Shown in pieces: positions 1 through 46,070 of a DNA stretch of 64,000 bases (the first letter of the stretch is position 1; every line of letters begins with the position of its first letter). The notes under the pieces are model-generated. The model ran no database searches, was not told the DNA's origin, and saw only the letters and a list, made by a program, of their open reading frames with translations. The stretch is from a virus: positions 1 through 64,000 of the IMG/VR virus record IMGVR_UViG_3300049043_000133. One strand, written 5' to 3'. A program made the position numbers and the translations under genes.

Positions 1-51
1 AAGTATGCTGGTGCTTATGTAAAGGAACCTAACCCAGGTAAGTATGATTGG
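1..51 (+). repeat. Direct repeat copy 1 (~51 bp)
   Basis: aagtatgctggtgcttatgtaaaggaacctaacccaggtaagtatgattgg recurs at 1147-1198 with one extra t. Confidence 0.95.
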
Positions 52-356
52 ATTTTGTCGTTAGATTTGACATCTCTATATCCTTCCCTTATTATGCAAT
101 ATAATATTTCTCCAAAACTCTTCTTGATGAAAAATATCCAGGAGTAACTGTTGACAAATTATTAAATAAAGAAATTATTATTGAAAATGTTGGGGGGAAG
201 TGTGTATGTGCAAATGGTTGCATGTACAATACATCTAAAAGGGGAATATTTCCCGAACTTGTGGAAAAAATTTTTAATGAGAGGCAATATTTTAAAAAAG
301 AAATGTTAAAAGAAAAATCTAGATTGGAAGAAATTGAAAGCGAATTAAAGAAATGA
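1..356 (+). CDS. gp43: Family B DNA polymerase segment, divergent copy: motif A plus first fingers helix, ending in a stop (gp43A-like, 5' partial)
   Basis: Translates KYAGAYVKEPNPGKYDWILSLDLTSLYPSLIMQYNISP...RGIFPELVEKIFNERQYFKKEMLKEKSRLEEIESELKK*, with a frameshift near 115. Confidence 0.8.
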
Positions 357-360
357 AAAT

Positions 361-406
361 TGATTTAAATACTTTATAATATAAATAATAAAGAGTATTT
401 AAATCA
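361..406 (+). promoter_or_regulatory. T4 late promoter (TATAAATA 380-387) in the loop of a hairpin just before the HNH start
   Basis: Arms tgatttaaatactttat / ataaagagtatttaaatca; ATG at 408. Confidence 0.75.
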
Positions 407-407
407 A

Positions 408-1081
408 ATGAACTATTTAAAAATTTATTGTAAGATAATTAGAAATGCTGAAAAAGAAATTGGAAAAGAAAAAATATTGATTTTTATATTGAAGAGCATC
501 ATACTTTTCCAATTTCAATTTATGGAAAAAATGATAGGATAGTTGGATTGACTCCAAGAGAACATTTTTTAGCACATTGGTTACTTTACAAAATTTGTTT
601 AAAAAGATATGGAATAAGAAATAATAAAACATTTAGTATGGGTTCTGCTTTTGCTATGATGTGTGTTATGAATGATTTGCAAGAAAGAAATTATACTTCT
701 AGAAAGTATGAAATAGTTAGAAATTGTTTATCTACCATAAGAACTGGAAAATCAAGAAATGATATGAAAGGAAAAAATATTTTGGGGCAAGTGAAGATGT
801 TATAAGACGAGGTATAGAAAAAATGAGGGAAAAGAAAACTGGAATGAAACTGGAATATCCGAAAAATAGAAAATCTTCTCCTTGTTCTTCGGAAAAGATG
901 AAAAAAATATCAGAAACTAGAAAAAATACAAGAATTAAATTTATTTCTATGAATGAAGAGGAATTTAATTTGTGGATTTCTAAAACAAAATCTTTATAGA
1001 AAGGATGGTGCAAGAAATTCAAACGTTACTCGCACACTAGTATGGAGAAACATTCCTTTGGAGAAATATTATGGAACTTGA
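408..1081 (+). CDS. Free-standing HNH homing endonuclease (frameshifted)
   Basis: MNYLKIYCKIIRNA...IEEHH.FP...LTPREHFLAHWLLYK is the typical phage HNH signature; basic C-terminal tail. Confidence 0.8.
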
Positions 1082-2547
1082 TTATTCTAAAATTTCAACC
1101 GATGAGTTGAAAAAACTTCGCCAAAATTGCATTAAAAATATTTCAAAAGTTATGCTGGTGCTTATGTAAAGGAACCTAACCCAGGTAAGTATGATTGGGT
1201 TGTTAATTTTGACTTAAACTCACTGTACCCGCATCTTATTATGCAATTCAATGTAAGTCCAGAAACTTTGGTTGAAGAACGTCATCCTACGGTTACGGTG
1301 GATAAAATTCTCAATCAAGAACTTACTTTTGAGATGTATAGTGATTATGCGGTGTGTGCAAATGGTGCAATGTATCGTAAAGATGTTCGTGGATTTCTTC
1401 CAGAACTGATGGAAAAGATGTATCAGGATCGTGTCATCTTTAAGAATAAGATGATTGAAGCAAAAAAAGAATATGAAAAAACCAAGAAAAAGAATTGGTA
1501 AAGGAAATTGCCAGATGTAATAACATTCAAATGGCAAAAAAGATTTCTTTAAACTCTGCTTATGGTGCAATTGGTAATCAGTATTTTCGTTATTATAAAC
1601 TTGAAAATGCAGAGGCAATTACTTTAAGTGGACAGGTTGCAATTCGTTGGATTGAAAGTAAGATGAATGCTTACTTGAATAAGATTTTAAAAACTGATGG
1701 GGTTGATTATGTTATTGCTTCTGATACCGATTCCATTTATCTTAATATGGGTCCTTTGGTTGAGAGTGTATACAAGGGAAGAGAGAAAACTACTGAGGGC
1801 ATTGTTTCGTTCCTTGATAAGATCTGTCAAGTGGAACTTGAAAAGTATATTGAAAGTTGCTACCAAGAACTGGCAAAGTATGTAAATGCATATGACCAGA
1901 AGATGCAGATGAAACGAGAGAATATTGCTGATCGTGGAATCTGGACTGCAAAGAAACGATATATTCTTAATGTATGGGACAGTGAAGGTGTTCGTTATGA
2001 AGAACCTAAACTTAAAATAATGGGTATTGAGGCAGTTAAATCTTCGACTCCTGCACCGTGTCGTAAGATGATTAAAGATGCTCTTAAATTAATGATGAGT
2101 GGAACCGAAGATGATGTAATTAACTTTATTGATAAGTGCCGTGAAGATTTTAAAAAACTTCCTCCTGAACAGATTGCATTTCCTCGTTCAGCATCTGACG
2201 TTACAAAATATCAATCATCATCAAGCATTTATGCCCACAAAACTCCAATTCATATTCGTGGAGCACTTTTATTCAATCATTATATTAAACAGCATAAACT
2301 TGTAAATAAATATTCTTTGATTCAAAATGGAGAAAAGATTAAGTTTATCTATCTTAAGAAACCAAATACGATTCACGAAAATATTATTTCGTTTATTCAA
2401 GAGTTTCCAAAAGAACTTAATCTTGACAAATATATTGATTATGACTTACAATTTGAGAAAAGTTTTGTAGAACCACTCAAAGCAATTCTTGATGCGATTG
2501 ATTGGAAAACCGAACACACTGTAAATCTTGATTCCTTTTTTACCTGA
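1071..2547 (+). CDS. gp43: Family B DNA polymerase, C-terminal polymerase domain (frameshifts near 1148 and 1495)
   Basis: DLNSLYP (motif A), KISLNSAYG (motif B), SDTDS (motif C), KKRY, and the C-terminal clamp-binding LDSFF. Confidence 0.95.
1147..1198 (+). repeat. Direct repeat copy 2
   Basis: Matches 1-51. Confidence 0.95.
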
Positions 2548-3550
2548 TGGACTTTCTTAAAGATATTGTAAAAGAAATCGGTGATGACTTTACAAAGTTA
2601 GCATCTGATATTGATGAAACTGAAACTTATGTTGATACGGGTTCATACGTTTTTAATGCATTGGTTTCAGGTAGTATTTTTGGTGGTGTATCTGGGAATA
2701 AGATTACTGCTATTGCTGGAGAGTCTTCTACTGGAAAGACTTTTTCTCTCTCGCAGTGGTTAAGAACTTTCTTGATACTCATCCCGATGGTTACTGCCTC
2801 TACTTTGATACTGAAGCTGCTATCACTAAATCACTTTTAGAAAGTCGTGGAGTTGATACAACCAGAACTGTAGTTGTAAATGTAGTTACAATTGAAGATT
2901 TTCGGGGTAAAGCACTGAAAGCAGTTGATATGTATCTTAAAAAACCTGTAGAAGAACGCAAACCTTGTATGTTTGTGTTAGACTCTTTAGGAATGCTTTC
3001 TACAGAAAAAGAAATCACTGATGCACTGAACGATAAGCAAGTTCGTGATATGACAAAATCACAACTTGTTAAAGGTGCGTTTAGAATGTTAACACTCAAA
3101 CTAGGTCAAGCAAATGTCCCGCTCATTGTCACAAATCATACATACGATGTCATCGGAGCTTACGTTCCAACTAAAGAAATGGGAGGAGGTTCTGGACTCA
3201 AATACGCAGCAAGTACGATCATTTATCTCAGCAAAAAGAAAGAAAAGGATGGAACAGAAGTGGTCGGAAATATTATCAAGGCTAAGACTGCTAAATCGCG
3301 TTTGAGTAAGGAGAATAAAGATGTTGAGATCCGTTTGTATTATGATGAGCGCGGTCTTGATCGTTACTATGGTCTTTTGGAACTTGGTGAACTTGGTGGA
3401 CTCTGGAAGAATGTAGCAGGACGCTATGAAATTGATGGTAAAAAAATCTATGGCAAACAAATTCTTGCAAATCCTGAAGAATACTTCACCGATGAAGTGA
3501 TGCAAAAACTTGATGAGATTGCAAGAGAGGAGTTCAGTTACGGTAAATGA
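2547..3550 (+). CDS. uvsX: RecA-like recombinase UvsX (frameshift ~2745)
   Basis: GESSTGKT Walker A; DSLGML; MGGGSGLKYAAS. Confidence 0.95.
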
Positions 3551-4089: not shown

Positions 4090-5454
4090 GTTTTTAATTC
4101 TTCGTAATCTTCTTCACAACGAAGAATATGTACGTAAAGTCATTCCTTTTATTAAGGCAGAATATTTTGAGGATACAAATCAAAAAGTTGTATTTGAAGA
4201 AGTCTTAAAGTTTATTCAACAATATAATCAACCTGCTACAAAGGAAGTCCTTTGTATTGAAGTAGAAAAGCGTCAAGATATTAACGACACATCATTTAAA
4301 GAAATCACTCATTTAATTGGGTGTCTTGATGATGTTCCTGCAGAGTTTAACTGGTTGTGTGATACTACTGAAAAGTGGTGCCGTGATCGTGCAATTTATC
4401 TTGCATTGATGGAGTCAATTCATATTGCAGATGGAAAGGACGAAAAGAAAAATCGGGACAGTATTCCTTCTATTTTGTCAGATGCTCTTGCTGTATCTTT
4501 TGATACTCATATTGGACATGACTATCTGTTAGACTATGAAGCACGTTATGAGTCTTATCATAGAAAGGAAGAGAAGATTGAATTTGATTTGGAATACTTT
4601 AACAAAATCACAAAAGGTGGTTTGCCTAATAAGACTCTCAATATTGCCTTAGCTGGAACTGGAGTTGGAAAAAGTCTTTTTATGTGTCACGTAGCAGCAT
4701 CAGTTCTGCTACAGGGTAAAAACGTCTTATATATCACTCTTGAAATGGCAGAGGAACGAATTGCTGAAAGAATTGACGCAAATCTTTTAAATATTCCAAT
4801 TCAGCAATTGAGTGAACTTCCAAAGTCAATGTTTGAGAATAAAGTTACTAGTCTTGCAAAGAAAACTCAAGGTACTTTGATTATCAAAGAGTATCCAACT
4901 GCATCTGCTCATAGTGGGCACTTTAAGTCTTTGCTTAACGAACTTGCACTTAAGAAATCATTTAAACCTGATATTATTTTTATTGATTATTTAAACATTT
5001 GTGCTTCCTCTCGTTATCGTGGAAATAGCAACATTAACTCATATACTTTTATCAAGGCAATTGCTGAGGAACTTCGGGGACTTGCTTGTGAGTTTAATGT
5101 ACCGATTTGCAGTGCGACACAAACGACAAGAAGTGGTTTTGGTTCTTCTGATGTTGAATTAACAGATACTTCTGAGTCTTTTGGACTTCCTGCTACTGCT
5201 GATTTAATGTTTGCTTTGATTAGCACAGAAGAACTGGAAGGACTTGGGCAGATTCTAGTAAAACAACTTAAGAATCAGATATAATGACCCGACCATTCAT
5301 AAACGTTTTGTGATTGGTATTGATAGAGCAAAGATGCGTCTTTATGACTGCGAACAATCTGCTCAACAATGATATTCTTGACAATGGTAAAGAAGAAGAG
5401 TATAATGACGAAGAAAGGAAACCCAAAAAATCATTTGAGGGATTTAAGTTTTGA
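4076..5454 (+). CDS. gp41: Replicative DnaB-like helicase (frameshifts near the 3' end)
   Basis: AGTGVGKS, TLEMAEE, IDYL, ATQTTR, SESFGLPATAD. Confidence 0.95.
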
Positions 5455-15207: not shown

Positions 15208-16177
15208 ATGGACTTTATTGATGTAAAATACATCAATTTGATATCTTCTCGTCTTCAAAAATTTAAGAAGGTAAAAAATAATCTTTACAACTTTCGTTGT
15301 CCTATTTGTGGCGACTCTCAAAAAAATAAGAGTAAAGCAAGAGGATATCTCTATCAGGTTAAAAACAATACAAACTTTAAGTGTCACAACTGCGGAATTA
15401 ACATATCTTTTAATAACTTCCTCAAACAAATAGATACCTCAATTCATAAACAATATACTTTTGAAAAGTTTAAAGAAGGACACACTGGTAAAAACTTTAC
15501 AGCAGAAGAACCTATATTTCATTTTGAAGCACCAAAGTTTAAACCCAAATTAGATTTACCAAAAGCATCGGAAAATCAAGAAGCAAAAGAATACTTAGAA
15601 AATCGAAAATTAAATCCAGATAAATTTTATTATAGTGAAAAATTTAAGGAGTGGACTAATTCTCTAAAACAAACTTTTGAAAGTACAAAACAAGATGAAC
15701 CGAGGATTATTATTCCTTTGTTCTATCAAAATACTCTTGTTGGATATCAAGGTAGAGCACTTGGGCGCAGCAAGATTAAATATATTACCATAATGCTTGA
15801 ATGATGACGCACCAAAAATCTATGGACTCGATGAAGTTCAAAAAAACAAAACTGTATACATCACGGAAGGTCCATTTGACTCAACCTTCATTCCAAATGC
15901 TATTGCTATGTGCGGAGCTGATGGTGATGTCAGTAAGTGGGGCATTCATGATTGTGTTTGGATATACGATAACGAACCACGTAATAGAGAAATCTTATCA
16001 AGAATTTCCCGTATTATCGAAATGGGACAAAAAGTTGTCATCTGGCCTTCATCAATAAAAGAAAAGGACATTAATGATATGGTTTTGTCTGGACTGGATG
16101 TTCAGTCTGTGATAGAATCTAATGTATATTCTGGACTGGAAGCAAAACTTAAATTTACTACCTGGAAAAAAGTATGA
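15208..16177 (+). CDS. gp61: DNA primase (frameshift ~15797)
   Basis: RCPICGDS zinc finger, KCHNC, TEGPFDS TOPRIM, KDINDM. Confidence 0.95.
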
Positions 16178-45367: not shown

Positions 45368-46070
45368 ATGTTAGTAGATTTACACAATTTCTTTAAGCAT
45401 TATGATGAAAAAAATCCAAAGCACGTTGCTGCTGTGGAAAAATTTGAAAAGGATTTGCTTCTAAAAGCACAAGACTTAATTCAAGACGAAGCAGAATGGG
45501 TTAAGGTTTTTAGAGCAAAACCAGAAGCACCCAAATCAAATATTCTTGATGTTCCTTTCTTTCCTCAGACAGATAATTACAGAGATGCTAGCCGCACTTG
45601 TAATTCATCTTCTTGTGCTATGTGTTTTAGAATACTTTAAACCAGGCACACTTAAAGGAGCAAAGGGAGATGATGCCTATGTTCAAAAAGTTTTCTCAAT
45701 TGGTGATACAACAGATCACGTTGTTCAAACCCGTGCTCTGGCGTCTTATGGTATTCAGTCACACTTTAGTTACGGGTTATCTTTTGCTGACCTTGATCGT
45801 GAGCTTGCTGCTGGGAAGCCAGTGGTTATTGGTATTCTCCACCGTGGTCCTTTATCTGCTCCTACTGGTGGGCACATGGTTGTAGTCATCGCCAAGACAT
45901 CTTCTGGTGATTATGTTGTTAATGACCCCTATGGTAGCCTTAATGATGGTTATACTGGTGCTGTAACAAATGGAAAAGGTGCCGTATATAAACGTGGAGA
46001 TCTTGCTCGTAGATGGTGTCCAAATGGAAATGATGGATGGGGAAGAATCTTTGATGTAAAAAACTCATGA
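45368..46070 (+). CDS. C39-like peptidase (cell-wall hydrolase candidate; frameshift ~45625)
   Basis: PFFPQ.DN...CNSSSCAM, GH.VV, VNDPYG. Confidence 0.75.

Follow-up and report, generated by a model that had tools for sequence, protein, structure and literature searches.

The split gene 43 of Aeromonas phages was reportedly described by Petrov, Ratnayaka and Karam in 2010. As described in two papers, the Aeromonas salmonicida phages 44RR and 25 carry gene 43 in two pieces, 43A and 43B, and phage 25 has a free-standing endonuclease gene, seg43(25) (PMC2988022, PMC2993671). A comparable arrangement, nrdA-a/mobE/nrdA-b, is given for Aeromonas phage Aeh1 in PMC3045599 and PMC2988022. For phage T6, the report describes identical 718-bp SegB units that were tandemly amplified under selection, as shown by PCR and long reads (PMC13096335). 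Finally, Pfu DNA polymerase split near the finger tip, whether engineered or accidental, shows that a family-B polymerase tolerates a break there (PMC3061061).

Here we compare these systems with the start of the window, the 64,000-nucleotide stretch of virus DNA analysed in this study, which is the first part of one 92,658-base contig and shares its position 1. Polymerase motif A occurs twice, as DLTSLYPSL in frame 1 (near 61-87) and as DLNSLYPHL in frame 2 (near 1211-1237), as the initial annotation had seen. We give a probability of about 0.7 to the reading that this tandem is a chimeric, low-coverage contig end in which two co-existing alleles, with and without an HNH cassette, have been mixed, a chimera formed in the library being included in that figure. 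We refer to positions 1-1148 as allele B and to the sequence from 1151 onward as allele A. Allele B is a real natural split-polymerase allele of an already known kind. The features are collected in Table 1, and they bear out the initial annotation in almost all its particulars.

Table 1. Features at the start of the window, by window position.
Feature	Position	Strand	Remarks
Direct repeat, copy 1	1..51	+	KYAGAYVKEPNPGKYDW; exact over 4-51; starts at contig position 1
gp43A C-terminal end	1..356	+	motif A DLTSLYPSL and first fingers arm; frame change 114; TGA 354-356
Hairpin, 16-bp	360..407	+	between gp43A stop and HNH start; 3' arm ends just before ATG 408
HNH homing endonuclease gene, free-standing	408..1080	+	frame changes ~450/454, 771, 982
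gp43B start, 26 codons	1071..1148	+	second arm of fingers tip; cut by junction
Non-native junction	1145..1151	+	short A-run microhomology and extra T
Direct repeat, copy 2	1151..1198	+	48/48 identical to 4-51
One-piece-type T4-like cyanophage gp43, C-terminal ~465 codons	1151..2547	+	motif A DLNSLYPHL, motif B, thumb; deletion ~1488

The layout of allele B agrees with the initial annotation, which had placed a stop of copy 1 at 356, an HNH gene after it and a fresh ATG at 1071. Relatives read 7-8 codons beyond the TGA that ends copy 1. The frame change at 114, which that description does not contain, falls at a point where relatives carry one extra base. The hairpin folds at -13.8 kcal/mol (z -6.2), with none of 200 shuffles folding equally well, and a reverse-strand self-match of it is also present in three related loci (L002, L004 and L009). 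Positions 1-1148 are 93% identical to L002; the HNH gene and its intact 224-aa counterpart at that locus share 94% DNA identity, and 76 of the 78 letters of the gp43B start agree with L002. The ATG at 1071 opens MELDYSKISTDELKKLRQNCIKNISK, which in relatives runs on as YTNNQMARK... Each half of the gene is delimited on its own, gp43A by a stop and gp43B by an ATG, and no intron or intein joins them; the Rfam search of 1-2600 gave no match at E ≤ 1, either to an intron or to any other RNA family. A free-standing endonuclease gene is found between the polymerase halves, and the two cistrons of the window do not cover the whole PolB domain, the N-terminal part of gp43A being absent and gp43B stopping after 26 codons.

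We searched IMG/VR with the copy-1 segment and obtained 24 loci. Ten IMG/VR loci (L001, L002, L004, L005, L006, L008, L009, L011, L012 and L013) are colinear with 1-1148 at 84-93% identity, which supports the proposal of the initial annotation that this part is a homing-endonuclease-borne split allele (gp43A-HNH-gp43B). These loci run directly into a homologue of window 1519-1561 onward. Where the window jumps after ...NISK, they read ...NISKYTNNQMARKIQ(I/L)NSLYG, passing from ...NISK straight into YTNNQMARK (motif B), and a return to motif A is found in 0 of the 10. The direct continuation of ISKY into NNxQMAxK, which the initial annotation had suggested looking for in other genomes, is therefore present in these related loci. 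The fullest example, L002, lies on a 71-kb contig and holds three intact genes, which encode gp43A (493 aa), the endonuclease (224 aa) and gp43B (369 aa). Both polymerase halves carry only polymerase domains, and because positions 21-145 of Pfam DNA_pol_B fall in gp43A and positions 148-452 in gp43B, no polymerase sequence has been lost at the break. For its endonuclease, the PHROG matches were 655, homing endonuclease (3.8e-26), and 12434, 'HNH endonuclease' (5.6e-20), while Pfam gave nothing at E ≤ 0.01. By alignment, the break lies near residue 496-500 of RB69 polymerase, which we take to be in the fingers domain. When cultured phages were searched at the DNA level with 1-1150, similarity was confined to 1-317 and reached ≤70%, and a protein search with the copy-1 segment reached ≤51% identity; the collection searched yielded no cultured phage related to the split allele. 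A 36-mer from the gp43B start had no exact match in IMG/VR once the contig's own and near records were excluded, which is weak evidence.

The same site is variable among relatives. One locus (L003) has a split gp43 without an endonuclease gene, and in another (L010) a 239-aa DUF559-type nuclease gene occupies the site instead of the HNH gene; in a further locus (L015) the insert is as long as that of L010 (1163 nt). Two loci (L014 and L016) have an unsplit gp43 with a long fingers tip that holds both 'arms'. Of the 98 loci with both motifs on the stretch compared, 85 have motif A and motif B 350-449 nt apart, one has them 518 nt apart, and in the other 12 the distance is 1139-1163 nt. Exactly one motif-A match was found in each of 104 related loci, and two only in the window. 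The switch from A-like to B-like residues comes a few codons later in L002 than in L001 and the window (DWVVSFDL vs DWILSLDL), which indicates that the cassette boundaries vary in nature around this stretch.

Set beside the published cases, the split allele resembles that of 44RR and 25 in being a T4-type PolB gene cut into two separately translated cistrons with no intein. An endonuclease gene stands between the halves in phage 25, as in L002 and nine other loci, and none does in 44RR, as in L003. The endonuclease of phage 25 is of the seg type, whereas the present gene is of the HNH type, the relatives are freshwater T4-like cyanophages, and no group I intron was found by Rfam in 1-2600. Unlike the units of 44RR and 25, that of the window is incomplete and joined to a second allele. 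Aeh1 shares with this locus the fragmentation of an essential enzyme gene by a free-standing endonuclease gene of the HNH family; its halves reassemble as proteins, whereas the host gene here is a different one and assembly of the polymerase halves is presumed. The T6 case is similar in having a homing endonuclease gene in the tandem unit, microhomology at the unit ends and one gene copy truncated at the junction, but the window is known from contig sequence, has one extra unit only, and its two units differ (62-65% identity past the repeat). Pfu polymerase is an archaeal enzyme in a laboratory construct with no mobile element, unlike the window. A search of literature listings found no paper describing an HNH split at the fingers tip of a cyanophage gp43, which is no proof of absence; the fingers-tip split gp43 with an HNH gene is a further member of the kind described for Aeromonas phages.

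Allele A spans the C-terminal two-thirds of gp43 at 80% nucleotide identity to Synechococcus phage S-SRM01 and has no HNH gene; its alignment with RB69 polymerase covers residues 391-496. GC content is 33.6% in 1151-2547 vs 26.9% in 1-1148. The initial annotation had placed the split allele in front of an intact one-piece allele; the order holds, but the second gp43 is not intact, since a one-base deletion at ~1488 shifts its frame where relatives are intact. This frameshift sits at the fingers tip, where the natural splits occur, and it is common to the window, a contig from a public run (X1, below) and a 250,788-base contig; an exact search of IMG/VR with the region gave no match outside the contig's own and near records, which is weak evidence. 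Exact protein look-up placed two A-part ORFs, of 86 and 97 aa, on the 250,788-base contig as well, and three B-part ORFs on one contig only. However, the B-part ORFs of the window are frameshift fragments, so such a look-up would miss any cassette that is free of sequencing errors on the 250,788-base contig. The window contig and the 250,788-base contig also have in common a frameshift at a homopolymer of uvsX, a sign of systematic sequencing error and not of biology.

The direct repeat of ~51 bp that the initial annotation described is borne out: positions 4-51 and 1151-1198 are identical in 48 of 48 letters at a spacing of 1147, and counting in the AAG and a one-base T indel at 1150 brings the length to 51 nt. 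Past the repeat the two copies diverge, agreeing at only 39/63 positions over 52-114 and at 151/233 over 115-356. By alignment, the repeat corresponds to residues 391-399 of RB69 polymerase. Simple conservation was considered as the cause of its exactness and ruled out, the exact 48-mer being present in 0 of the 104 related IMG/VR loci and the best locus having 3 mismatches. The repeat also contains an Asn codon that none of 100 relatives has, the residues there being I (61), K (21), V (17) and L (1). Because the copies agree at every position and this codon is otherwise unseen, both are of one genotype, that of the phage forming the rest of the contig, and on these comparisons the repeat is neither chance nor conservation. 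Exact searches that excluded the contig's own and near records gave no match to the repeat with the Asn codon in JGI metagenome contigs and IMG/VR, nor to the repeat joined to B-type sequence in IMG/VR, both weak as evidence.

At the junction, the sequence does jump back to the repeat at a microhomology, as the initial annotation had it, through an A-run and an extra T at 1148-1151. The A-run is common to the natural gp43B sequence and to the natural sequence upstream of the repeat; because it is only 4-6 nt long and lies in A-rich DNA, it is weak evidence. The T is extra relative to the X1 contig. The frame that opens at the gp43B start enters the repeat out of frame (...VMLVLM*), in frame 3 vs frame 2 after the junction. 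Whether or not the extra T was included, the junction pattern had no match in IMG/VR or in JGI metagenome contigs outside the contig's own and near records, and exact look-up of the junction-spanning 32-aa ORF returned one contig only, that of the window.

The contig itself bears on how this junction is to be read. Its record, an IMG/VR virus, is linear with a CheckV completeness of 45%, and contig position 1 is the first base of repeat copy 1. No N-terminal polymerase half was found anywhere on the 92,658 bases. Terminal overlap or circular permutation was ruled out, as the contig ends have no common overlap and the 3' end encodes a tail-fibre-like protein, not a polymerase. Alignment to S-SRM01 proteins revealed six frame changes in ~14.5 kb (pol, uvsX, gp41 twice, primase and endolysin), that in uvsX sitting in a run of five T, and the long tail-fibre-like ORF at the 3' end has frame changes too; the contig is indel-prone over its whole extent. 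The coding sequence of 1-1080 nevertheless has four in 1.03 kb, and the frameshift density of the first 1.1 kb is ~9 times that of the rest (4/1.03 kb vs 6/~14.5 kb; Poisson P ~0.001). At all four, L001, L002 and the X4 contigs are one base longer or shorter than the window. This raised density fits thin read support at contig ends and points to very few supporting reads.

Independent data came from Logan contigs of four public runs (X1-X4, from other or unidentified samples), which we compared with window 1-2600 and in which the share of sampled words reached at most 0.24 in any run. In X1, a 501-nt contig matches 1151-1516 at 100% identity, the 1488 deletion included; the 135 letters preceding this stretch are ordinary polymerase upstream sequence, the last 21 of them being those of L011 and L012. 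Two contigs of X3 are of the same type, with the second allele after ordinary polymerase upstream sequence. X1 and X3 have no cover of 1-1131, and X2 covers that part only in the bin 1-87; since contigs from public runs drop rare variants, this gap in X1-X3 does not show that the sequence is absent there. In X4, B-type contigs at ~95% identity span 42-1148, and one of them then skips to 1605; this skip from 1148 to 1605 is the natural single-copy layout.

The tandem thus lies at a contig end and is an arrangement absent from the relatives and from the independent data, both of which are marks of a chimeric end. The initial annotation had mentioned, as a fallback, an assembly join of two co-existing alleles, and it is this possibility that gains most from the contig start at the repeat, the tandem in 0 of 104 loci, the out-of-frame junction and the ordinary upstream sequence in X1 and X3. 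On this reading, allele B would be a fragment of a natural split gp43 that is single-copy in real genomes and runs on into motif B. Its split would lie at the tip of the fingers domain, with each polymerase half translated separately, the hairpin would cover the ribosome-binding site of the free-standing HNH gene, and the gp43 halves would presumably reassemble via the two helical arms at the break. Allele A would be the ordinary one-piece gene of the phage forming the rest of the contig, and the sample would have held both alleles, cassette-bearing and cassette-free. One or a few chimeric reads bearing the junction, or an assembler error, may have led from the gp43B start back into the 48-nt stretch that is shared. 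Two assembly paths would then enter the same stretch, so that the contig would break exactly there: the path would take one turn round the cycle and stop on meeting the same fork again, which would explain why the contig starts exactly at the repeat. With two alleles mixed at a non-native contig-end join, the tandem would be neither a stable arrangement nor a switch.

How the join arose can be narrowed somewhat. Because an exact-word (de Bruijn-type) assembler needs some junction reads, some chimeric or recombinant molecule was probably physically present; the evidence on the tandem comes from contigs and relatives, and junction molecules could be present in the source sample. One possible origin, counted within the figure given for a chimeric contig end, is an in-vitro chimera made by amplification or template switching between alleles in the library and then faithfully assembled. 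It would supply the physical read that the join requires, and both the microhomology at the joint and the difference in error density between the two alleles are in its favour. As the specific origin we regard it as somewhat improbable.

It is possible but unlikely that the tandem is a real, rare and aberrant recombinant, probably non-functional, in which a heteroallelic tandem duplication arose within an essential gene of phages in nature. In a mixed infection or a cassette-polymorphic population, template switching or the repair of an HNH-made break would have let a cassette-free allele copy the split allele from the 48-nt stretch to codon 26 of gp43B, the process ending by re-annealing, through the 4-6 nt of microhomology, just upstream of the 48-nt stretch on a second, cassette-free template. 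The boundaries agree with such a route: the left one (51/52) is at a homologous position and joins a repeat of 'A' genotype to B-type sequence, like a homing co-conversion boundary, the right one is at the A-run, and the boundaries of the cassette vary in nature, as L002 compared with L001 and the window illustrates. A precedent is the SegB-dependent tandem amplification in T6, with microhomology at the unit ends (PMC13096335). That precedent fits only in part, the junction at a microhomology being common to both, weak as these 4-6 nt of A-rich DNA are, while head-to-tail copies of one unit, as in the SegB one-unit amplification, are not what the window holds, given the identities of 39/63 and 151/233 and a second copy without the HNH gene. 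The out-of-frame junction would leave the product without a usable gp43B start. Moreover, no relative has the tandem, the junction has no second occurrence in IMG/VR, JGI metagenome contigs or the exact protein look-up, the same A allele stands behind normal upstream sequence in X1 and X3, and errors are so frequent here that very few reads are likely to stand behind the sequence.

Least probable by far is the suggestion of the initial annotation that the tandem is a stable, functional arrangement in which the phage alternates between a split and a one-piece polymerase by recombining across the 48-nt repeat. The exact direct repeat at its 1147-nt spacing would permit the deletion, and the ~1488 frameshift lies at the natural split site and is common to the X1 and 250,788-base contigs. 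Against this, the N-terminal polymerase half that a switch needs is absent from the contig, gp43B is cut short after its start and lies out of frame, four frameshifts fall in copy 1 and the HNH gene together, X1 has the 1488 deletion with normal upstream sequence and no cassette, the shared uvsX frameshift noted above speaks for systematic sequencing error, and the arrangement is unique among 104 relatives.

If the tandem were true, it would be a case of structural rearrangement linked to an endonuclease in an essential gene of wild phages, a counterpart of the laboratory SegB amplification. The real split allele contributes a few natural variants at one site, with an HNH gene, with a DUF559 nuclease gene, without a nuclease gene, and unsplit. 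Where core phage genes are polymorphic for homing endonucleases, assemblies fork, and contig ends derived from such forks can mimic 'cassettes bounded by direct repeats'; the chief value of the locus is as a warning of this.

In the second polymerase copy, the one-piece-type (A-type) gp43 that runs from 1151 onward, one base is deleted at ~1488 (region 1480-1501), exactly at the fingers tip where the natural splits lie, and the stop that results (1499-1501) overlaps a TTG at 1495. The deletion is common to a 100%-identical contig from the public sequencing run X1 and to a 250,788-base JGI/IMG contig; the region is in frame in near-identical contigs from runs X2 and X3 and in all of the A-type relatives inspected (9/9). 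An under-called A-run is most simply the source of the deletion, and a tolerated natural split of the polymerase at this point is still conceivable.

Frame changes are also found elsewhere on the contig, as listed in the table below. A sixth T in the uvsX run would bring back the reading FFS...AVVKNF of L002, a related IMG/VR polymerase locus. Since the 97-aa truncated uvsX ORF is present on the 250,788-base contig too, the frame errors look systematic for the sequencing platform. Past the window, the last ~1,500 bases of the 92,658-base parent contig hold a long tail-fibre-like ORF with several frame changes just ahead of a conserved C-terminal domain, which suggests that this 3' end is error-rich as well.

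Features of the polymerase loci and frame changes on the contig
Feature	Position	Description
Hairpin, 16 bp	360-407	between gp43A stop and HNH start; z -6.2
uvsX frame change	2735-2760	run of five T
Further frame changes: gp41 (two), primase, endolysin	near 5250-5370, 15700-15800, 45620-45630	
Different nuclease gene	L010 4281-5000	239 aa; Pfam DUF559 match 2.5e-7
Unsplit polymerases, long fingers tip	L014 1504-2070; L016 3887-4450	
Split allele without endonuclease gene	L003 3017-3180	

In the split allele, the 3' arm of the hairpin spans the purine-rich stretch directly 5' of the ATG at 408, and the inverted repeat also occurs in L002, L004 and L009. Translation of some T4 endonuclease genes is limited in this way, and the hairpin here may do the same for the endonuclease.

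Related loci carry natural variants of the split. In L003, the final ~160 nt of the HNH gene region come immediately after the gp43A stop, with the gp43B start next; this allele appears to derive from the cassette by deletion. The unsplit polymerases of L014 and L016 hold in their fingers tip both of the helical arms that flank the break in the split alleles (...KLEEIENKLKENNADSTEELNNI.QICIKNISKY...), so the arms are either older than the split or were re-fused afterwards. The nuclease gene of L010 lies at the same fingers-tip break as the HNH gene, the N-terminal arm of its gp43B differs as well, and L015 has an insert of equal length. One fingers-tip split site thus serves unrelated endonuclease genes.
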